Assembly (NCBI GenBank): GCA_910588465.1
Contig: CAJUOP010000007.1
Coordinates: 20,462 to 84,461 of the forward strand
Direction of reading: 5' to 3'
Origin: an uncultured Christensenellaceae bacterium
Lineage (GTDB): Bacteria; Bacillota; Clostridia; Christensenellales; Borkfalkiaceae
Length of the DNA stretch: 64,000 nucleotides
In this document: positions 51,926 through 61,446 of the stretch, in pieces
Layout: every line of letters starts with the position of its first letter
Numbering within the stretch: position 1 is the first letter of the stretch
Translations under genes and position numbers: made by a program
Notes under the pieces: generated by a model
Seen by the model: only the letters and a program-made list of their open reading frames with translations
Database searches by the model: none
What the model was told of the DNA's origin: nothing

Positions 51926-51935
51926 AAAACAGCTT

Positions 51936-52024
51936 GCAGAGATGGCGGAGCGGTAAGCACTTCGTGCTTCGGTACGACGAACGCTGCGCGTTCGCCCGCT
52001 CTCATACCTTATTAACAATTACAT
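51936..52024 (+). other. 89-nt structured leader that begins with a 19-nt copy of the tRNA-Ser 5' end (tRNA fragment / scar)
   Basis: GCAGAGATGGCGGAGCGGT at 51936-51954 is identical to 52025-52043. The rest folds as GAGCGG...CCGCTC enclosing the hairpins AAGCAC-TTC-GTGCTT and CGAACGC-TGC-GCGTTCG. There is no T arm and no matching 3' acceptor strand. Confidence 0.4.
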
Positions 52025-52114
52025 GCAGAGATGGCGGAGCGGTCGAACGCGCACGATTCGAAATCGTGTGATGCAGGAATGTATCCAAGGGTTCAAATCC
52101 CTTTCTCTGCGCCA
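52025..52114 (+). tRNA. tRNA-Ser (anticodon CGA), class II with long variable arm, CCA encoded
   Basis: The acceptor stem is GCAGAGA/TCTCTGC and the anticodon arm is CACGA-TTCGAAA-TCGTG. The variable arm is GATGC-AGGAAT-GTATC and the T arm is AAGGG-TTCAAAT-CCCTT. Confidence 0.88.
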
Positions 52115-52119
52115 GTAAG

Positions 52120-52168
52120 AACCTAAATTGAACACCCTATAACGGGTAGTTTGATTTAGGTTTTTTTG
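52120..52168 (+). terminator. terminator-like hairpin after tRNA-Ser
   Basis: The sequence is AACCTAAATTGAAC...GTTTGATTTAGGTT, followed by TTTTTTTG. Confidence 0.5.
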
Positions 52169-52218
52169 TTTGTCTTTTTTTCGTGTTAACATAAAAATGG
52201 CGGTTTATGCCGCGAAAG

Positions 52219-52342
52219 CCGCTTGACATGAGAAAGGCGTGCGGTAGGCTATTTTGCCAACGGCAAACAATAAGCCCCGCAGGGGCGGTGGGTTTGGCTC
52301 TTTGCCTGAATACCGCACGCCTGCGAGGCTCATGTCAAGCGG
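52219..52342. repeat. nested inverted repeat (14 bp + 12 bp arms around a 64-nt core) just 3' of the recombinase gene
   Basis: CCGCTTGACATGAG (52219-52232) pairs with CTCATGTCAAGCGG (52329-52342). AGGCGTGCGGTA (52235-52246) pairs with TACCGCACGCCT (52311-52322). The core contains the mini-hairpins TTGCC-AAC-GGCAA and GCCCC-GCA-GGGGC. Confidence 0.7.
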
Positions 52343-52366
52343 AACGTGGAATAAATAGCCGTTGCG

Positions 52367-53839
52367 TTATATCGTTAAAATCACGGTAACGTTTTGCGCC
52401 GCGTTTATCTGAATGGTTTTAGAGTAAAAAGAAAAGCCCTGACTGTCGTCAGGACTAATTCTTATCGGGCTGTTATAGTGAATTTCTATTTTATCGTCAA
52501 ATAGCACGATTTCCTTAATCAGATAGTTGATAAGCATTTGCGGCTCTAATTTCAACGCTTGTATGTAAAACTGTTTCATGTCGCTTTCAGACAGCTTTAC
52601 GGCGGTTTTACTGCGCTCTATGAGTATCTGCCTTTCTAAATTCTCTTGCTGTTCTTCAAGCTCTTTCAAACGCTTTGTCGTGGTGTTGGTGATTACGCCT
52701 TTTTCAATCGCCGTCATGATATTCTTAATCGCGTTTTCCGTCTGCCGTTTCTCTTTGGTAAGCATATTCAAAACGGGCGTTCCTTTGGCTTGCTGTTCCT
52801 GTATATCGAGCATCCCTTTAACAAGTGCATTAACAACTTGCGGTTTGCTCAATTCTTCAAGCGTGGTATCAATCACTAAATTTTCTAAAAGATCTTTGCG
52901 TATTACAGACTTATTACAATCGCTACCGCGCTTTCTTCCAGAACACTTGTAATAGCGTTTCACCTGTCCGTTTTTGGAAGTACCCGTTTCCGCGCTAATC
53001 GGCATACCGCAATACCCGCATTTCATTTTCTGCCGTAAGAGATAGACGACTTCAACGCTACGCTTGCCGTATTTATTCCCGTCGATTTTAGAGCGTACCC
53101 GTTCATATATTTCGGTGGGAACGATTTGCGGATAGATATTCTCGAACACTTCTCCGTCGTGTCTGTAAATACCCGAATATTTTTCACTCTTTAAGATGTT
53201 ATAAACGGTGTTCCTCGCAAACGGTTTTCCGTGATTATAAATTCCTTTTGCGGTCAACGATTTTATGATGTCTTTCACATACACGCCCAAAGAGTATTGC
53301 TCAAAAATAAAGCGGACTACTTCGGCTTGGTTTTTGTTGATTACTACTTTCCTGTTTTCCACGTTATAGCCGTAAATCAAATAACCGCCTGTAAAATTTC
53401 CCTTTAACCGTGTTTCTTTCATACCTCTGCGCACCTTTTGAGAAAGCTCGGCACTGAAATATTGGTTCATGCCTTCAAGTAAGCTCTCCAAAATAATTCC
53501 TTCGGGCGTGTCGGGAATATTTTCCATAGCCGATAAAAGCGTAACGCCGTTGTTTTTAAGCGTTTTTTTATGAATAGTGCTTTCATACTTGTTACGGGAA
53601 AATCTATCAAGCTTGTAAACGATAACGAAATCCCATTCGCGCCGTGCGCTTTCCTTTATCATGCGCTGAAAATCGGGGCGGTTGTCGTTCGTTCCCGTCA
53701 TAGCTCTGTCGATGTAGGTATTGAGAATTAGAATATTATTCCTCTGTGCATATTCTTCGCACACCCTCAACTGCCCCTCAATAGACTGCTCTGACTGACT
53801 GTCCGACGAATACCTTGCATAGATGACTGCTGTTTTCAT
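52367..53839 (-). CDS. large serine recombinase (resolvase domain + recombinase domain + zinc ribbon + coiled coil)
   Basis: 490 aa. It has the N-terminal catalytic motif AVIYARYSSDSQ, then DRFSRN, GGYLIYGY, and the zinc ribbon CGYCGMP...YYKCSGRKRGSDC. Confidence 0.9.
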   Translation of the reverse strand: MKTAVIYARYSSDSQSEQSIEGQLRVCEEYAQRNNILILNTYIDRAMTGTNDNRPDFQRMIKESARREWDFVIVYKLDRFSRNKYESTIHKKTLKNNGVTLLSAMENIPDTPEGIILESLLEGMNQYFSAELSQKVRRGMKETRLKGNFTGGYLIYGYNVENRKVVINKNQAEVVRFIFEQYSLGVYVKDIIKSLTAKGIYNHGKPFARNTVYNILKSEKYSGIYRHDGEVFENIYPQIVPTEIYERVRSKIDGNKYGKRSVEVVYLLRQKMKCGYCGMPISAETGTSKNGQVKRYYKCSGRKRGSDCNKSVIRKDLLENLVIDTTLEELSKPQVVNALVKGMLDIQEQQAKGTPVLNMLTKEKRQTENAIKNIMTAIEKGVITNTTTKRLKELEEQQENLERQILIERSKTAVKLSESDMKQFYIQALKLEPQMLINYLIKEIVLFDDKIEIHYNSPIRISPDDSQGFSFYSKTIQINAAQNVTVILTI

Positions 53840-53867
53840 TTCAAAACTCCTTATAAATTAGATTTTT

Positions 53868-54024
53868 TATTTGTCTTTCGACAAGGACGGACAAAACGGA
53901 AACGCATGGGCTTATTTCTTATTAGCCGTTCATTCCTTTCCCGCAAGGGCTACCGCAGGTAGTGCATTTTACCCTTGCGGGAAAGTGCGTTTTCGTTTAC
54001 GATCCGCCGGTCGAAAGACAAATA
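53868..54024. repeat. 15-bp perfect inverted repeat flanking a 127-bp segment with an inner 12-bp stem, between rep and the recombinase gene
   Basis: TATTTGTCTTTCGAC (53868-53882) pairs with GTCGAAAGACAAATA (54010-54024). The inner stem is TTCCCGCAAGGG (53938-53949) with CCCTTGCGGGAA (53972-53983), and its loop carries CTACC-GCA-GGTAG. Confidence 0.7.
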
Positions 54025-54026
54025 CG

Positions 54027-54908
54027 TTAGTTGCATTTGGGCATTTGTTTTATCACTTCTTCGCTTGCCTGCCCGACAATGCAGCCGTCCTCAATGCAAG
54101 TGAATTTATCAAATAATATCGCTTTTCTGCCGTCCACCCCGTAGGGGCAAATAATATCGTCGTCAAAAATGTCGCTTACGAAATAGGTTGGAAGTTTTCC
54201 GCCGTAAATCAACCGCTCGTTGCTTTTCTCTATGTATTTGAGCAGGTAACGCACGGACTGCATGACATCTTCCAATCTGCCTAATTCCTTGAAATCGTTT
54301 CGTCCAAAATGCTTTTGAAAGTGCGTGTTCTGAAAGGTCGTTTGCATACGGTGGCTTTTCGTGCTGTAATCTTTAACTTCCACAAGCTCGCCTATCATTT
54401 CGGGAATATAGAATATTCCGTGAAAGTGTAGTCGGTTCTTTTCGGGGCTTCGTTCCCATACGCCGATATACTTCCAACCTTTACGGCTCACCATGTGTTT
54501 TAAGGTATTTCGCAACTTTTCTTTGAACGTTTTTTCCGTGTGAAGCTCATTGCTGAACGTGAACGTTACAAAATAGTTCCATTCCTGCAAATACACTTTT
54601 CGCATTAGCCGAACGCGCCGTTTCGCCGCATTGGTTTTCTTGCGCTCGATATTGCTCTCGATAAATTCCTTTGCGCGTTCTTCGGTGAGAAAAGTGTCTT
54701 GCAATTTCTCTTTGATATATTTCTTTCGTTCTCGTTTCGGTAAGCTCTGACTTTCCGAATATGCCATTTCAAATTTGGCTTTCGGACTGTCGGACACTTC
54801 CCGCTTGGGCTTCGGCTTATATCTCCGCTTACGGCGCGGGAAATTTTCGGGCGGCATGGCGATAAAATGACTGCCGTCGTAATAGACTTTTGCTTTTTGA
54901 TATGACAT
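54027..54908 (-). CDS. rolling-circle replication initiator / HUH endonuclease, phiX174-gpA-like (two-tyrosine) type
   Basis: Motif I is YFVTFTF, motif II (HUH) is RLHFHGIFY, and motif III is VRYLLKYIEKS (Y-x-x-x-Y-x-x-K). The N-terminus is basic. The ATG at 54908 is preceded by GGAGAA. Confidence 0.7.
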   Translation of the reverse strand: MSYQKAKVYYDGSHFIAMPPENFPRRKRRYKPKPKREVSDSPKAKFEMAYSESQSLPKRERKKYIKEKLQDTFLTEERAKEFIESNIERKKTNAAKRRVRLMRKVYLQEWNYFVTFTFSNELHTEKTFKEKLRNTLKHMVSRKGWKYIGVWERSPEKNRLHFHGIFYIPEMIGELVEVKDYSTKSHRMQTTFQNTHFQKHFGRNDFKELGRLEDVMQSVRYLLKYIEKSNERLIYGGKLPTYFVSDIFDDDIICPYGVDGRKAILFDKFTCIEDGCIVGQASEEVIKQMPKCN

Positions 54909-54947
54909 GATTTTTTCTCCTTTTTTGATTTGATTTTTTGCGGTAAA

Positions 54948-54999
54948 TAAAAAAAGAGCAGAATACAAAACAATACAAATGTTTCGTACTCTGCTCTTT
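54948..54999 (-). terminator. hairpin with T-run upstream of rep (ends the small-ORF transcript)
   Basis: The minus strand reads AGAGCAGAGTAC-19 nt-GTATTCTGCTCT, followed by TTTTTTTA. Confidence 0.45.
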
Positions 55000-55103
55000 T
55001 CTCAACGCAACCACTGTTCCTATGCGGAAATCTCGGCTTGCCGTTGGGCGGTACAATCTTACTTTCTATTTACCTTGATTGGTTATTCAGTTGTTTTTTC
55101 TTT

Positions 55104-55232
55104 TTAGTCTTTTTGTGCTTTTAACTCTTTAATTCGCTGTAACAGCGTTTCAAAGAATGTCTTCCGTTCGTTTTCCGATAGTAAATTATCGGCTTCTTCA
55201 ATGGTTATCACTTCAAATTCTTTCGCGGACAC
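55104..55232 (-). CDS. 42-aa acidic helical protein (possible accessory/directionality or regulatory factor), unannotated in the ORF track
   Basis: A GTG start is preceded by GGGAGGTG 8 nt upstream. The translation is VSAKEFEVITIEEADNLLSENERKTFFETLLQRIKELKAQKD. I recognise no family. Confidence 0.3.
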   Translation of the reverse strand: MSAKEFEVITIEEADNLLSENERKTFFETLLQRIKELKAQKD

Positions 55233-55312
55233 CGTTTTCACCTCCCGTTCGGATTTGCTTGAAAAGCAAATCCCATTATACACCGCCCGTAAACAAATTG
55301 CGCGGGAATAAA

Positions 55313-55380
55313 GGGGAACAAAAGCGGTACAAAATAGGAACTAAAAGGAAACTAAACGGGAACTAAAAGTGTACAAAATA
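55313..55380. repeat. iteron-like array of six 11-bp-phased repeats
   Basis: The units are GGAACAAAAG / GGTACAAAATA / GGAACTAAAAG / GAAACTAAACG / GGAACTAAAAG / TGTACAAAATA, read off directly from 55315-55380. Confidence 0.65.
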
Positions 55381-55409
55381 CAAGTTTACGGGTAGAAACG
55401 CAGGAACAG

Positions 55410-55472
55410 CCGCGCGGATCAAAAAGGGCGATTCGCCAAGCGGGTTAGCGGCGAACGCCCTTTTCCGCGCGG
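55410..55472. repeat. long GC-rich hairpin C (about 23 bp stem)
   Basis: CCGCGCGG..AAAAGGGCG.TTCGCC pairs with GGCGAACGCCCTTTTCCGCGCGG around the loop AAGCGGGTTAGC. Confidence 0.65.
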
Positions 55473-55528
55473 CGTTTCGTTTCGCCGTGCATATTTTATG
55501 TTTAGTTGTGTTTGTTCTTTTGTTTCCG

Positions 55529-55593
55529 CTGTGGCGGGGGCTTGAACGCGGCGGCGAAGCCGCCGCGCTCGTTTATTCAAGCACCCGCCACAG
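55529..55593. repeat. long GC-rich hairpin D (about 26 bp stem)
   Basis: CTGTGGCGGG-GCTTGAA-CGCGGCGGC forms one arm, the loop is GAA, and GCCGCCGCG-(bulge)-TTCAAGC-CCCGCCACAG forms the other arm. No T-run follows on either strand. Confidence 0.65.
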
Positions 55594-55611
55594 TGCCAAG
55601 CATTCGCTTTA

Positions 55612-56484
55612 CTAATTTATATCTATAATTTCCGTACCGCTTATCGTTAAATACCATAAGTCCGCTTTACCGATTGTATCACTGTTTTCTACTAAAAAGT
55701 GCAATTCAAATTTACCGTCTATTCGGTGTAGCTCGGCATAGATAATTCTACTCCACGGACAATTCGGTTTGCTTTTGTCGTAGGGAAATATTACTTTATC
55801 TTTGCCCTCTAAAATTTCACCGTCTTTTATCAGTAAACAATCATTGTTTTCAGTTTTCAAATAAATATTGCCGCCTTTTTCTTCAATGCCCATGAGCAAA
55901 TATTCATTATATTCGTTTAAGTCGAGTTCTTGCGTTAAGCTGCTTTCCGCATCGTTCGTTTCGGAATATGCTTTATCTTTTATTTTTTTAACGGTTTTCT
56001 GCAATTTCGCACAATACGGACGCAGCAATTTTTTTACTTCCGCACTCGCATATCCCAATGCAAATACGCGGATATCTGCAATTTTGCTCAATATCTCCTG
56101 CGGCAGTTGACTGTAAATAGCAATCAATTCTCGGTTACGCTCTTCAAATTGTTCCGCGCATAGTTTTTCGTCAAAGTGATATACCGTTTTATTTCGGTTA
56201 TCGTATAAAATTTCGTGCATTTTCTTAAATTCTATCCTGCGCTTGCGTTCTTCTAAGGTAATATTCGGTTCGTTGACGTATACCTCGATTTTTTTCAATT
56301 CTACCTCTGTGTCGCGATACCAATCGCATGATTTGCTGAATCCCTCGAAAATTGCGTAAATTTTTTCATAGGTACGCCGATAAAAAGTCTCGTCTTTTTG
56401 TTCGGCTTTCTTCGATTTCCGTACATGCGAATTTGCATACGATAAAAGCTCACACGTGTAAAATTCTTTTGTCAAATATTTCAT
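55612..56484 (-). CDS. hypothetical island cargo protein (possibly DUF4085-like)
   Basis: 290 aa with AT-rich codon usage. The N-terminus MKYLTKEFYTCELL and the segment ADIRVFALGYASAEV remind me of DUF4085 proteins. This is memory only and unverified. Confidence 0.6.
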   Translation of the reverse strand: MKYLTKEFYTCELLSYANSHVRKSKKAEQKDETFYRRTYEKIYAIFEGFSKSCDWYRDTEVELKKIEVYVNEPNITLEERKRRIEFKKMHEILYDNRNKTVYHFDEKLCAEQFEERNRELIAIYSQLPQEILSKIADIRVFALGYASAEVKKLLRPYCAKLQKTVKKIKDKAYSETNDAESSLTQELDLNEYNEYLLMGIEEKGGNIYLKTENNDCLLIKDGEILEGKDKVIFPYDKSKPNCPWSRIIYAELHRIDGKFELHFLVENSDTIGKADLWYLTISGTEIIDIN

Positions 56485-56840
56485 AATTTATCTCCTGTAT
56501 TTTAATTTTTTAAGTTTAATATCAATACCGGTACTCTTCTTTATCTACCATATAGCGGTTGCGTTTCAACATACATTCGTGCGTATAACGTTCGGAAACG
56601 AGCGTTACTTTGTCTGCCTTTTTTAGGATATGGTGATACCGCGCAATATCTTTTTTATCTCATTTCAAAGTTTGGTTGAGGCACGGAACGGCGCATTCCA
56701 AGGTTAGAAGATACAATAATTCTTTCTACAATCGCAAAATTACGCGGTAACGCTACTTATTGCATACATTGTAGCACGCATTAAAATTTATGTCAACCGT
56801 TATAGAATATTATTGTTAGCACATATTATTGGGGAAGCTT

Positions 56841-57155
56841 ATGACGGTTCAAGAACGAATAGAAGAATTGTTAGAAAAAAATAAATGGTCTAAATATAAA
56901 CTTGCCAAAGAAGCAGGATTTTATCCCACTACTGTTTATGATTGGTTTAATGATAAGCACTATACACCTGATAGAAATTCTATTGAATTGATATGTTTAG
57001 CATTTGGGATTTCACAAGCAGAATTTTATAGCCGAGTAGATGAAAATAAATTAAATGCTGACCAAACAGCACTATTAGAATTGTTTTCAAAGATACCAGA
57101 AAATAAAAAAGCACTGATTTTTGAGATACTAAAATCAATGGCACAACAAGAATAA
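56841..57155 (+). CDS. XRE-family HTH transcriptional regulator
   Basis: The protein reads MTVQERIEELLEKNKWSKYKLAKEAGFYPTTVYDWFNDKHYTPDRNSIELICLAFGISQAEFY, followed by a short C-terminal helix. GGGGAA lies upstream of the ATG at 56841. Confidence 0.8.
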   Translation: MTVQERIEELLEKNKWSKYKLAKEAGFYPTTVYDWFNDKHYTPDRNSIELICLAFGISQAEFYSRVDENKLNADQTALLELFSKIPENKKALIFEILKSMAQQE

Positions 57156-57168
57156 ATTTTGAAATGTT

Positions 57169-57483
57169 ATGAATATTCACGGTAGAATACAAGAGCTTAT
57201 CCAAAAAGAAGGTTGGTCGTTATATCAATTATCCGAAAAAACAGGTATTCATAAAACAACTGTTTATAATTGGTACAATGAAAAACATTATACGCCAGAT
57301 AGAAATTCTATTGAATTGATATGTGCCGCATTAGATATAACATTATCTGAATTTTATAGCGGAATTGACGAAGGCGATCTTGATGGTGAGCAAATACATT
57401 TATTGGAATTATTTGCAAAAGTGCCGCCACGTAAAAGAAAAATCGTTTTTGAACTTTTACGAAACTTGTCGGACGAAATATAA
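57169..57483 (+). CDS. XRE-family HTH transcriptional regulator, tandem paralog
   Basis: The protein reads MNIHGRIQELIQKEGWSLYQLSEKTGIHKTTVYNWYNEKHYTPDRNSIELICAALDITLSEFY. A 27-nt block is identical to the upstream paralog (56970-56996 = 57298-57324). Confidence 0.8.
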   Translation: MNIHGRIQELIQKEGWSLYQLSEKTGIHKTTVYNWYNEKHYTPDRNSIELICAALDITLSEFYSGIDEGDLDGEQIHLLELFAKVPPRKRKIVFELLRNLSDEI

Positions 57484-57520
57484 GGACGTAAGTTAAACTT
57501 TGTGTTCAACTTACGTCCTT
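57482..57520 (+). terminator. hairpin overlapping the stop of the second XRE gene
   Basis: The sequence is AAGGACGTAAGTT-13 nt-AACTTACGTCCTT. Confidence 0.5.
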
Positions 57521-57535
57521 ATTGGCGCGCCACAT

Positions 57536-57579
57536 CAAACCCAACTGAACCCGTAAACGGGCGCAGTTGGGTTTGTTTT
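57536..57579 (+). terminator. intrinsic terminator near the right end of the island
   Basis: The sequence is CAAACCCAACTG-16 nt-CAGTTGGGTTTG, followed by TTTT. Confidence 0.6.
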
Positions 57580-57747
57580 ATGAATTGAGTTTATAATAAG
57601 CTTTTGCCCAACTGACGGACTGCCGCGTTTTCTGATATTAAGCTTTTCCAAATAACAAAAAAACATTTGTAAACATGATGATTTCCGTAACTTACAAACG
57701 CCTTTTTACCCGTTTAATTCTTATAAATTTTTCTTTCTTATAATCCT

Positions 57748-59271: not shown

Positions 59272-59282
59272 AATCCCGTCAT
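59236..59282. repeat. 12-bp tandem repeat (3 perfect copies + 1 partial) at the 5' end of the 57748-59271 gene
   Basis: AATCCCGTTCAT occurs three times (59236-59271), followed by AATCCCGTCAT. On the gene strand this encodes MNGI MNGI MNGI. Confidence 0.85.
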
Positions 59283-61446
59283 TTTACTTTTTTTAAATGC
59301 CATTCCCAGCTACCGAAGTCGCCCGTTTGGGGCAGAGGAAGCCCCGCTCCCAGAAGAGCACCACCGCTTAACACCGTTTTCAGTTCTTCGATTTCATAGA
59401 AAGCGTTATGGTCGAGCCCTTGCAAACGAATTCGCGGATAGAATTTATCGCTCGCATAGGGAATACATAAACCCCGTTCTCCCACAACGTAGGCTTCGCT
59501 CTTGTCCTTGCTTACAACGAGCATACAAAAATAATTACTTTCCAACGGATTGGAAAGACGATAGAGTTCCCCGCTTAAAATCAGACGATCCGTGCGCTTA
59601 TACGCTTCGATCTGCGCCTTTACGCTCTCTTTTTCCTCGTCCGTCATCTTCGTTACGTCGAGCTCGTACCCGAACGCGCCGAGCGAAGCGATCCGCCCCC
59701 GCGTATCGAACGGCACCGTTCTGCCCGTCTGATGGTTAGGGCAAACGGAAACGTGACAGCTCATGGAAGAGAGCGGATAACAGAGCGACGTGCCCCACTG
59801 TATTTTCGTGCGCTCGTAACCGTCGCTGTCGTCGCTTGTCCAGATCTGCGGAAAGTAGTACAGCATACCCGCATCGAACCTGCCACCGCCGCCTGCACAG
59901 CCCTCAATGAACAAATCGGGAGATTCGTCCAATAATCGCTGCGCCAAGTCGTACACGCCCAAGATATAGCGGTGCATGACCTCGCCCTGTCGGTGATAAG
60001 GCAACGAAGCGGAGTAGCATTCGCTTACGTATCGGTTCATATCCCATTTAATATAAGATATATCGTTTTCTTTTATAATCTTGCTTACCGCGCCGAAGAT
60101 ATAGTCCACAACTTCTTTGCGCGTGAAGTCCAACACCAATTGCTGACGGCTGCGCATGGGTTCCACGCCCTCTTTGCACAGCGCCCAGTCGGGATGCGCG
60201 CGGAAAAGTTCGCTGTCCTCGTTCACCATTTCGGGCTCGAACCACAATCCGAACTTCATACCGTGCTCTTTGCAACATGCGGAAACTTTTTTCAGCCCGC
60301 CCTTTAATTTTTCTTCGTTGACAACCCAATCGCCGAGCCCCGCAAAATCGTTCGTACGATTCCCGAACCAACCATCGTCCAAGACAAATGTATCGATTCC
60401 GAGATTTGCCGCCGCGGTAATGATCGCGCAGAGTTTTTCGTTATCGAAATCAAAATATGTTGCCTCCCAATTATTGATCACCACGGGACGGCGTTTGAAC
60501 GCATAGGCAGGGTTGATAATTCTCTCGCGCAAAAAGTCGTGTACGGAGCGCGACATACCGCCCATACCCGCATTTGAATAGGTCAAAAGCACTTGCGGCG
60601 TTACAAAGCTTTCGCCGCCACGAAGCTCCCAGCAAAAGCTCGTTTCGTTGATCCCGCCCTGCAAGGTAAGCGCGCCGTGTTTGCTCCACTCCGCCGTCAA
60701 GGCGAACGAGCCGCTGTACACGAGCTGTATGCCGTAGCACTCGCCGCTCTGTTCCCCGCAATCCTCTCTTAATATCCCCATAAACGGGTTGGTCTGGTGC
60801 GACGACGAACCGCGCAGCGAATGAATACGCGTTACCCCGTGCGCGATCGGCGCGATTTCGGGAATGCGTTCCTGACCCCATCTGCCTGCAAGGCGCAACA
60901 GTTTGTATTCCCCGTTTGCAAGTTCCGCACGGAAGGAATACGCCCTTTTCAACATGACGGGCTTTTTGCCGACGTTTCGAATCACAGCGTTTCTTACAAG
61001 CACGTTCGAATTTTCGCAGACGGTATAATACAGATCGACTTCGATATCCGAAAAGTCGTCTTTAAGCGTGATGACGAGCGTTTCGTGCCGCTTCGCACAT
61101 GCGGCATACCGACAATTTTAGGGGCGTCTTTTTCAACACGATAGGAATCATAGCGCAGTCTGCTCATGCTCGCGCCGTCTTGCCGCTCGAAAATCGCGGT
61201 AGGTTCTTTATTATCGCCCTTGGCGTAGAATCCGTATTCGGAAGGCAGATAGTCGAACGCCTCGTCCTTGTTGATCCAATGATTGGGCACGATCGACGCA
61301 TAGGTTTCGGCAAGATAAGCAACATCCTCTCGTTTCATTTTTCCGCCGTAATGGAGCTGTTGTAAAAAACCGTCGCCGTTTACGAACATGGCATAGCCGT
61401 AATTTTTGCCTTCGAGCAAAAACTGCTTTCCGTCCGCATAAATCAT
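59279..61446 (-). pseudogene. GH36 alpha-galactosidase interrupted by a frameshift near 61084-61100 (or a sequencing error)
   Basis: ORF 60994-61446 encodes the GH36 N-terminal domain (...LRYDSYRVEKDAPKIVGMPHV). ORF 59279-61003, extended upstream in its own frame, reads ...HETLVITLKDDFSDIEVDLYYTVCENSNVLVRNAVIRN... It continues through VINNWEATYFDF, VLDDGWFG, YIKWDMNR and CAGGGGRFD. The two frames join only with a 1-nt shift. Confidence 0.75.

Follow-up and report, generated by a model that had tools for sequence, protein, structure and literature searches.

A 5.4-kb integrative element with a large serine recombinase and a predicted Microviridae-type Rep at tRNA 3′ ends of gut Clostridia, and its probable rolling-circle stage

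Related systems

Small elements that combine a serine recombinase with a rolling-circle-type Rep are known from Firmicutes (PMC5704250, PMC5357655), and the filamentous phage phiRSM unites the same two functions (PMC4471427). The element described here lies in a 64-kb stretch of contig CAJUOP010000007.1 from an uncultured Christensenellaceae bacterium—this whole stretch of 64,000 nucleotides is called the window. It is inserted at the 3′ end of a tRNA-Ser(CGA) gene, has a length of 5,418 bp, and belongs to a large, unnamed family of integrative elements of gut Clostridia that features a Rep and a large serine recombinase and probably passes through a rolling-circle stage. A preliminary description of the window, made from the sequence alone, had listed a compact AT-rich block at tRNA-Ser with a 490-residue serine recombinase, an HUH/YxxxY Rep, a 42-residue open reading frame (ORF), iterons, palindromes, a 290-residue protein, and two XRE genes, and all of these are present. 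The undescribed mechanism for which it named this the likeliest place was an overstatement in view of the systems just cited: the family, the design of its att site, and its conserved structured elements are new, and the kind of element is already known.

The Firmicutes integrative mobilizable elements (IMEs) with Rel_PHA00330, Rel_PF01719, or MobT, some of them with serine integrases (Coluzzi 2017, PMC5357655; Guedon 2017, PMC5704250), are, like the present element, small and integrated and carry an outward-facing terminal recombinase. In both, an HUH Rep-like protein is the sole DNA-processing enzyme, type IV secretion genes are lacking, and the cargo is variable. PHA00330 is a Microviridae Rep model and represents the same broad Rep type as the Rep of the element. 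The described serine-integrase IMEs insert inside protein-coding genes and disrupt them, namely rumA, traG, snf2, and maff2 (PMC5357655, PMC5704250). Unlike these, the present family inserts at the CCA ends of tRNA genes and restores the tRNA. It has no TcpA, its Rep belongs to PF23343, its hosts are Christensenellales, and it carries three structured elements (S1, S2, and S3) that are not described for the IMEs.

The phages phiRSM1 and phiRSM3 of Ralstonia are, as summarized in a review, filamentous rolling-circle phages whose integration and excision at a tRNA-Ser 3′ end depend on a serine recombinase that they encode (Askora 2011; review PMC4471427). The combination of a rolling-circle mode—a probable one for the present element—with a serine recombinase at tRNA-Ser is common to both, and phiRSM has a repressor gene next to attP (PMC4471427). 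However, phiRSM has the full gene set of an inovirus, coat and morphogenesis genes included, a small recombinase of the resolvase/invertase type, a 13-bp match between attP and the tRNA, and a proteobacterial host. The present element, in contrast, features no structural genes, a large serine recombinase of 490 residues, a 6-bp core, a 2-bp crossover, and a Rep of the predicted microvirus type.

The mobilization protein of Tn4451 is TnpZ and not a rolling-circle Rep. In other respects, Tn4451/Tn4453 (TnpX) resemble the element, with a size of about 6 kb, occurrence in Clostridia, a large serine recombinase, a circle form, and a single mobilization protein (PMC5704250). They differ in their targets, since TnpX-type recombinases are filed under low integration specificity (PMC5704250). 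The ends of tRNA genes are not targeted by Tn4451.

Plasmids of the pMV158/pC194 type feature an HUH Rep after a small ORF (CopG), iterons and hairpins near rep, and separate structured origins, all within about 5 kb. The element likewise has an HUH Rep after a small ORF, iterons and hairpins near the rep gene, and long structured regions at a length of about 5 kb. Unlike these plasmids, it is integrated and carries an integrase, its Rep is found in no plasmid record, and this Rep is a two-tyrosine protein of PF23343 instead of Rep_1 or Rep_2.

The integrases of Bxb1, phiC31, and TP901-1 share with the recombinase of the element the domain architecture and the use of short, imperfectly symmetric att sites with a 2-bp crossover and without long duplications. 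In these model systems, a non-palindromic central dinucleotide fixes the orientation of insertion, whereas the element has a palindromic GC and occurs in both orientations in nature. In addition, its target is, unlike theirs, a tRNA 3′ end common to several tRNAs.

Insertion site and boundaries

The insert and its borders feature the following parts, all in window coordinates:

52111-57528: inserted element, 5,418 bp, from comparison of the empty and the occupied site and from a copy with other flanks (L001)
52025-52114, plus strand: host tRNA-Ser(CGA), the integration target (ARAGORN; Rfam tRNA, 58 bits)
52115-52168, plus strand: element-borne hairpin with a T-run (52117-52165) and P′ arm of the att site, from junction comparison
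57480-57532, plus strand: hairpin 57480-57522, which serves as XRE terminator and as P arm of att, and next to it the attR core, from inverted repeats and junctions
57536-57579, plus strand: native tRNA-Ser terminator hairpin, host sequence, directly after the tRNA in all empty-site contigs

In this count, the crossover dinucleotide of attR is included and that of attL is not. The same host locus occurs without the island in seven contigs (L011-L014 and L017-L019), which were found via a look-up of the flanking short-chain dehydrogenase. Their empty tRNA-Ser(CGA) sites end ...CTCTGCGCCACATCAAACCC and, in a wider reading, have the sequence ...CCCTTTCTCTGCGCCACATCAAACCCAACTG.... In the occupied site, the attL core GCGCCA (52109-52114) forms the last 6 nt of tRNA-Ser(CGA) and the attR core GCGCCA is located at 57527-57532; attL reads CTCT[GCGCCA]GTAAGAACC and attR reads CCTTATTGGC[GCGCCA]CATCAAACC. 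The comparison with relatives that had been proposed for finding an empty site and the att junctions thus yields both. From the other side, the stretch 52108-57531 of the window is 99.945% identical to L001 and L004 over 5,424 bp, and the flanks are unrelated. The right end of the element lies within the range given in the preliminary description, and the left end is 5-6 nt inside the tRNA and, hence, just outside that range.

As had been noted, the base composition changes at the insert, with a GC content of 0.399 vs 0.544 and 0.513 in the flanks; it is the sole low-GC block of the window. The element ends carry a 27-nt terminal inverted repeat, the left copy of which spans 52109-52135. At the recombinase end, the architecture AACCTAAA...TTTAGGTT-N5-TGG is kept in 35 parsed loci, and the sequence of the hairpin 52117-52165 adjoins the tRNA or the flank at each insertion site (L001, L007, L008). 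Upon insertion, this element hairpin replaces the terminator of the tRNA, and the native terminator at 57536-57579 is displaced from tRNA-Ser by 5.4 kb. Similar hairpin loops at the two ends had been taken as possible marks of a disrupted target; instead, the hairpin at 57536-57579 is the native terminator, the one at 52117-52165 travels with the element, and the tRNA-Ser is intact after insertion. The identical 293-residue Rep is found on at least 22 public contigs in varied contexts. A DNA search with the element gave no match in plasmid records and an 84-bp match only in a phage collection.

Crossover and att-site design

Besides the tRNA-Ser(CGA) of the window, the same element is found at three tRNA loci. 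L007 and L008 carry it at tRNA-Ser(GCT) in the same orientation as the window. L001 carries a 99.9%-identical copy at tRNA-Arg(CCG) in inverted orientation, with the opposite end next to the tRNA. From the L001 junctions, an empty tRNA-Arg site of the sequence ...CCGGGTGCACCAAAAAATGCCGC..., ending ...GGGTGCACCAAAAAATGCCGC, was predicted and then found letter-for-letter in L103 and L104, which were reached via homologues of the neighbouring MnmA protein.

At tRNA-Ser, attB, attL, and attR have 6 bp in common. At tRNA-Arg, the part common to attB and attP at the exchange point is GC only (T-GC-A vs C-GC-G) and, therefore, strand exchange is confined to this dinucleotide. The crossover GC corresponds to tRNA positions 71-72 and is located at 52109-52110 in attL and at 57527-57528 in attR. 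Such a 2-bp exchange is, as read from the junctions, what is expected for a serine integrase. Integration by serine recombination, as suggested in the preliminary description, is thus borne out by the empty sites, the exact junctions, the three other tRNA loci, and the 2-bp crossover; at the level of sequence, mobility and site-specific insertion of the serine-recombinase type are strongly supported.

The deduced attP is CCTTATTGGC-GC-GCCAGTAAGAACC, which is symmetric about the GC; as a single string it reads CCTTATTGGCGCGCCAGTAAGAACC, and its junction reads ...ACGTCCTTATTGGCGCGCCAGTAAGAACCTAAA.... Its core TGGC-GC-GCCA is a palindrome consisting of two inverted copies of the tRNA 3′ end. In serine integrases, the central dinucleotide is the sole determinant of orientation, a result attributed to Ghosh et al. 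2003 as cited in PMC12884075. From this rule and the self-complementarity of GC follow the two natural orientations of the element, and because both attP arms begin with GCCA, either orientation rebuilds N73-CCA. The target set comprises several tRNAs whose last bases fit the attP core. Among large serine recombinases, this design—a palindromic core that copies the tRNA, a self-complementary GC, insertion in both orientations, and use of several tRNAs—is an unusual one. Serine integrases rank among the main tools of genome engineering, and for enzymes that recognise tRNA ends, which are near-universal, landing sites would be ready-made.

The insertion at tRNA-Arg(CCG) (L001 7378-7386, compared with L103/L104) changes A73 to G73, that is, GGGTGC-A-CCA to GGGTGC-G-CCA.

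The serine recombinase

52367-53839, minus strand: large serine recombinase, 490 residues (PF00239, PF07508, PF13408; phrog_95)

The recombinase features a Resolvase domain at residues 4-147 (PF00239, E = 1.7e-28) followed by matches to Recombinase (PF07508, E = 2.8e-14) and Zn_ribbon_recom (PF13408, E = 1.1e-11), and it matches the integrase family phrog_95 at 1e-104. Its catalytic domain, with the motif AVIYARYSSDSQ, has TP901-1 integrase and TnpX among its PDB matches. Between the window and L008, the gene has 50 synonymous and 16 non-synonymous codon differences, at 70 nt differences in all; as judged by codon comparison, it is under purifying selection. TnpX-type enzymes need no recombination directionality factor (PMC5704250). 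In the present element, the 42-residue ORF or the DUF4085 protein may be such a factor.

In L073 (~11085), L066 (~3770), and L080 (~11083), the recombinase gene breaks within its first few codons and continues into unrelated sequence. In L073 and L066, the break lies right after ATGAAAACAGCAGTT (with a TTG start in L066) and the sequences beyond it are similar (GCTNTTTNATTTTATGGACAC). Another element that targets the conserved 5′ end of recombinase genes may be at work there.

The Rep protein

54027-54908, minus strand: HUH rolling-circle Rep, 293 residues (PF23343, motifs, AlphaFold fold)

The ORF of Rep spans 54027-54968 with the true start at ATG 54908, as recorded in public gene calls. Exact-protein look-ups with the longest ORFs (Rep from TTG 54968, and a 507-residue flank protein) gave no match because the real starts differ; the version from ATG 54908 was matched. 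Rep scores 43.2 bits against PF23343 (REP_ORF2-G2P), for which the gathering score is 27.8 bits, and features the motifs FVTFT, RLHFHGIFY, and VRYLLKYIEKS. In an alignment of 17 Rep homologues of 67-93% identity (A1), FVTFT, H161-F-H163, and Y221-LLK-Y225 are invariant. The AlphaFold model has a predicted local distance difference test score of 71 with a confident core. Its best BFVD matches are Microviridae replication initiators (E = 2e-6 to 1e-4, probability 1.0); in the PDB, CRESS-virus Reps match weakly in their HUH nuclease domains (E = 0.05-0.1). The motifs, the match in Pfam, and the predicted fold together mark Rep as a protein of the phiX/Microviridae type, in agreement with the preliminary description. 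A PDB sequence search with the Rep profile gave no match, and PADLOC, NCBIfam, and PHROGs gave none for Rep, the 42-residue ORF, or DUF4085.

IMG/VR contains only three distant relatives of Rep, in contigs of 20-84 kb, and the phage collection only one distant match, in a 57-kb genome; these distant Reps have 38-49% identity.

The Rep gene shows no difference over 882 nt across the window, L001, L002, L007, and L008, while neighbouring genes differ; the DUF4085 protein, for example, is 83% identical in L002. The sequence identity of Rep between divergent neighbours points to recent modular recombination among elements.

Structured elements

53868-54024, minus strand: S1, long nested hairpin immediately 3′ of the stop codon of Rep (fold -50 kcal/mol, z = -9.8)
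52180-52366, minus strand: S2, multi-helix element directly 3′ of the recombinase gene (main hairpin 52219-52342; fold z = -7.9)
55411-55593, minus strand: S3, two GC-rich hairpins (S3b 55411-55471, S3a 55529-55593; fold z = -7.1)

The element carries four GC-rich palindromes (52219-52342, 53868-54024, 55411-55471, and 55529-55593). The three intergenic stretches that bear them were folded against shuffled sequence and reach z-scores of -7.1 to -9.8. For the alignments of S1 (A2, 36 loci) and S2 (A3, 25 loci), pairing was controlled by sliding the partners and by shuffles.

S1 features an apical stem CAAGGG/CCCTTG, the conserved sequence TAAA(G/A)TGCA in unpaired form, and one further hairpin of small size. 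In its alignment, 96.2% of the cells pair vs 37-51% after sliding, 19 pairs change on both sides, and none of 500 shuffles matches the observed values. One copy of S1 follows each family Rep, also where the recombinase is replaced or truncated. Since S1 is strictly linked to Rep, it is taken as the candidate nick site of Rep, that is, a double-strand origin or an origin of transfer (oriT).

In the alignment of S2, 97.4% of the cells pair vs 36-43% after sliding, and both partners vary in 15 pairs. The shuffles all stayed below the actual alignment in pairing and in covariation score; the number of extra pair types lies within the shuffle range. S2 is a candidate single-strand origin, single-stranded DNA (ssDNA) promoter, or non-coding RNA. 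S3 is located upstream of Rep in nearly all loci (nhmmer), at a distance of 450-950 nt. In its alignment (A4), the stems are conserved, and the apical and outer stems vary in step, as judged by eye and without counting. The role of a single-strand origin or control element is tentatively assigned to S2 or S3. Rfam at E ≤ 1 returned the tRNA and chance matches only, and none for S1, S2, or S3.

On the plus strand, S2 contains a family-invariant TTGACA (52223-52228) and TAGGCT (52245-52250), 16 bp apart and directed antisense into the 3′ end of the recombinase gene. These two motifs could form an antisense promoter in duplex DNA, or a promoter rebuilt by the hairpin in ssDNA.

The Rep family and S1, S2, and S3 have not been described in this setting. 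A Microviridae-type Rep is here tied to a cellular integrative element with DNA or RNA structures supported by covariation, by which the Rep origin and the single-strand biology become testable.

Family, hosts, and cargo

The family was delineated by a Rep-based scan with one genome per species, which gave 386 loci, the best 80 of which were examined in detail. Rep homologues number 3,552 at E ≤ 1e-3, and among the matches listed, every one with a source name is a "hypothetical protein". The Rep/recombinase pair, for which a database search had been proposed at the outset, is found in about 60 of the 80 loci examined from species-representative genomes; in 72,556 plasmid records, Rep has no match.

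The best 80 of the 386 loci stem mostly from Christensenellales (Christensenella sp., Borkfalkiaceae, Coproplasma, Limadaptatus, and the cultured isolate Pumilibacter intestinalis CLA-AA-M10, which has two family members, L058 and L061), and more than one copy occurs in several genomes. For about 60 of these loci, Rep is followed after ~190 bp by an orthologous recombinase (55-72% identity), and the order Rep-S1-recombinase-S2 is kept. The recombinase end adjoins the CCA of a tRNA in 30 of 35 parsable loci, and these tRNAs cover at least 10 amino acids: Gln, Thr, Lys, Leu, Glu, Val, Ser, Ala, Met, and Tyr; other loci add Arg. Almost identical element ends occur next to different tRNAs with the same last 6-7 nt.

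The 12 fully delimited elements measure 5.2-12 kb, and eight of them 5.2-6.2 kb. The relatives hold other cargo in the position of DUF4085. For the 11 other delimited elements, it was classed by reading the translated ORFs by eye: pairs of a C5-methyltransferase and a restriction enzyme, Vsr, a pair of an ATPase and a UvrD-like helicase, a DUF262-like protein, a leucine-rich surface protein, and assorted metabolic enzymes. An N6 methyltransferase is carried by L008. The cargo of the relatives, thus, consists mostly of restriction-modification and defence genes; no structural, transfer, or capsid gene was recognised in these translations. This is a widespread, unannotated family of mobile elements in gut Christensenellales that ferries defence genes and helps explain genome plasticity in a poorly studied clade.

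Several loci depart from the common layout. A composite locus in L002, L003, L005, L006, and L010 (e.g. L002 6836-16650) has a Rep gene nucleotide-identical to that of the window and a recombinase gene cut after ~123 codons (annotated as a 138-residue product). Downstream follow a 210-residue gene, a Bro-N gene, a second Rep, and a sigma-70 region-4 protein; the second Rep has 352 residues at 50% identity and no S1 after it. The XRE end of the locus lies at a degenerate 3′ fragment of tRNA-Ser (...TTCCCTCTCTCTGCGCCA) beside structural genes of a tailed phage. The whole looks like tandem accretion and decay. The phage structural genes next to L002-type loci were considered as a helper phage or as part of a larger phage genome, and this was rejected on account of the degenerate tRNA-Ser fragment at the block edge and the truncated recombinase.

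In L057, L069, L070, and L098, the recombinase end adjoins, instead of a tRNA, another element, whose large serine recombinase is a different one (39-48% identity) and lies on the other strand; the two elements seem to sit head-to-head at a single tRNA-derived site. In a sub-family of ten loci (L060, L062, L063, L066, L077, L081, L083, L084, L089, and L090), the gene after Rep and S1 is an unrelated one (METNVKKVFL...), and next comes a distant serine recombinase of 22-28% identity. L060 and L062 have a further recombinase (39-45% identity) beyond the distant one.

Other genes and control signals

55104-55232, minus strand: 42-residue acidic ORF (GTG start, ribosome-binding site GGAGGTG, isoelectric point 4.8)
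55309-55380, no strand assigned: six 11-bp iteron-like repeats of the GGAAC(A/T)AAA type (repeat search; TRF at 55310-55380, periods 11 and 22)
54952-55000, minus strand: 20-bp hairpin and T-run just upstream of Rep (inverted repeat; terminator scan)
55612-56484, minus strand: DUF4085 cargo protein, 290 residues (PF13315, E = 4.8e-10)
56829-57155 and 57169-57483, plus strand: two tandem XRE/Cro-C1 genes (HTH_26, HTH_3, HTH_19; phrog_8, phrog_3)
56768-56808, no strand assigned: overlapping divergent promoter-like sites (promoter scan, consensus matches only)

The 42-residue ORF is also called as a gene in public contigs, and tblastn places homologues of it upstream of Rep in many loci. It has the conserved C-terminal sequence ...ER(K/R)(T/S)F(F/Y)ETLL... 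and no family match in Pfam, PHROGs, NCBIfam, or PADLOC; it may be a Cop-like regulator. The iteron array is located upstream of the operon of the 42-residue ORF and Rep. The hairpin at 54952-55000 is terminator- or attenuator-like and may control the expression of Rep.

The XRE proteins are paralogues with ~50% identity, are presumed to be the repressors of the element, and match the RstR family weakly, below the cutoff. In the gap between the DUF4085-Rep-recombinase operon and the XRE genes, the minus-strand promoter-like site is TTGACA-17-TACAAT with an upstream TG (11/12 matches), and the one on the plus strand, on the XRE side, is TTAAAA-16-TAGAAT.

The element, hence, holds an integrase, a repressor, and a replication module. 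Pfam and PHROGs scans of all its ORFs returned no capsid, tail, coat/morphogenesis, conjugation, or canonical relaxase gene, in line with the absence of phage structural and conjugation genes noted in the preliminary description. The same scans gave no terminase small subunit, capsid-remodelling, or packaging gene.

Life cycle and alternative explanations

A circular form was inserted by the recombinase at the 3′ end of tRNA-Ser(CGA). In the life cycle proposed from there on, the XRE repressors would, in the integrated state, keep the operon of DUF4085, the 42-residue ORF, Rep, and recombinase silent, with the XRE pair and the divergent promoter-like sites at 56768-56808 forming a repressor switch and with the terminator-like hairpin at 54952-55000 and the small ORF regulating Rep. 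After excision, Rep would nick S1 and drive rolling-circle replication of the circle, and S2 and/or S3 would act as single-strand origin or control regions. The displaced single strand would be the likely form for maintenance or for passage between cells, the latter by conjugative mobilization with Rep as the relaxase, by helper-phage packaging, or by another route.

A number of results weigh against this course. The junction deduced for attP occurs neither in IMG/VR nor in the JGI metagenome contigs, and a terminal-overlap test found 0 of 28 short contigs to be circular. The absence of the circle from assemblies is compatible with a transient circle. No member of the Rep family is found in the 72,556 plasmid records, which leaves plasmid-like autonomous maintenance undocumented. 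In addition, the counts of G-T vs A-C mismatches in S1 and S2 give no clear strand bias, and S1, S2, and S3 could act as RNA. Of the rolling-circle self-replication or transfer suggested earlier, the type of Rep is, hence, borne out, whereas no circular junction or circular contig was found and the stage itself is still inferred.

A possible but clearly less probable explanation is a strict integrative mobilizable element, in which Rep would serve mainly as a relaxase that nicks an oriT (S1), a helper would provide the conjugation pore, and replication would be secondary. By analogy, Rep and S1 could be such a relaxase and oriT: streptococcal IMEs have putative relaxases related to rolling-circle initiators, including the Microviridae-type PHA00330, and some of these IMEs have serine integrases (PMC5357655, PMC5704250). 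The restriction-modification and defence cargo is typical of mobilizable elements, the members surveyed have no phage structural genes, and the family is almost absent from viral contigs. However, the elements examined have no TcpA-type coupling protein or other transfer gene, whereas TcpA is encoded by 83 of 118 streptococcal elements with Rep-like relaxases (PMC5704250). Moreover, no helper conjugative element was identified, and the relaxase role of PHA00330-type proteins is in the literature itself an inferred one. This explanation refines that of an integrative element with a rolling-circle stage rather than excluding it.

It is unlikely that the element is a satellite of an ssDNA phage—microvirus-like or filamentous—in which a helper capsid would package a single-stranded circle made by the Rep and origin of the element. 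The predicted fold of Rep resembles Microviridae replication initiators, and eight of the 12 delimited elements have the size of a microvirus genome (5.2-6.2 kb), but others measure 7.5, 9.6, and 12 kb. The layout of repressor and divergent promoters, with its weak, below-cutoff RstR-like matches, is as in the CTX/RS1 satellites, and phiRSM is a rolling-circle phage with a serine recombinase at tRNA-Ser (PMC4471427). On the other hand, no helper was identified, and packaging or capsid-redirecting genes are lacking. The three IMG/VR relatives of Rep are distant and sit in contigs of 20-84 kb, which are not microvirus-sized, and the one distant match in the phage collection comes from a 57-kb genome. 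The idea that the family represents the first satellites of ssDNA phages of the microvirus-like kind, or in broader terms elements whose mobile form is a single-stranded circle generated by Rep, is accordingly put forward as a long shot. If it held, Rep and S1 would feed a single strand of ~5.4 kb into a helper capsid, S2 and S3 would prime complementary-strand synthesis in the new host, and the palindromic attP, which mimics the tRNA, would then let the recombinase insert the element both ways round wherever a tRNA has a compatible 3′ end.

A decayed, immobile remnant of a microvirus or inovirus prophage would explain a phage-type Rep and XRE repressors without structural genes but is very improbable given nearly identical copies at four tRNA loci, empty sites in close relatives, a compact core in dozens of species with the recombinase mostly intact and capsid genes in none, and the purifying selection on the recombinase.

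Observations in the host flanks

An exact 20-nt copy of the 5′ end of tRNA-Ser (TGCAGAGATGGCGGAGCGGT) is located at 51935-51954, 89 nt upstream of the tRNA. The stretch starting at 51935 folds as a hairpin (-27.9 kcal/mol) and is not recognised as a tRNA. This duplicate is host sequence because it is present at the empty sites too.

Beyond the right end of the element, the GH36 alpha-galactosidase is a single 574-residue ORF in the window (59279-61003) and is broken up in the empty-site assemblies L011 (5817-7944) and L012, where it takes up two or three ORFs. These splits are probably frameshifts or assembly errors.

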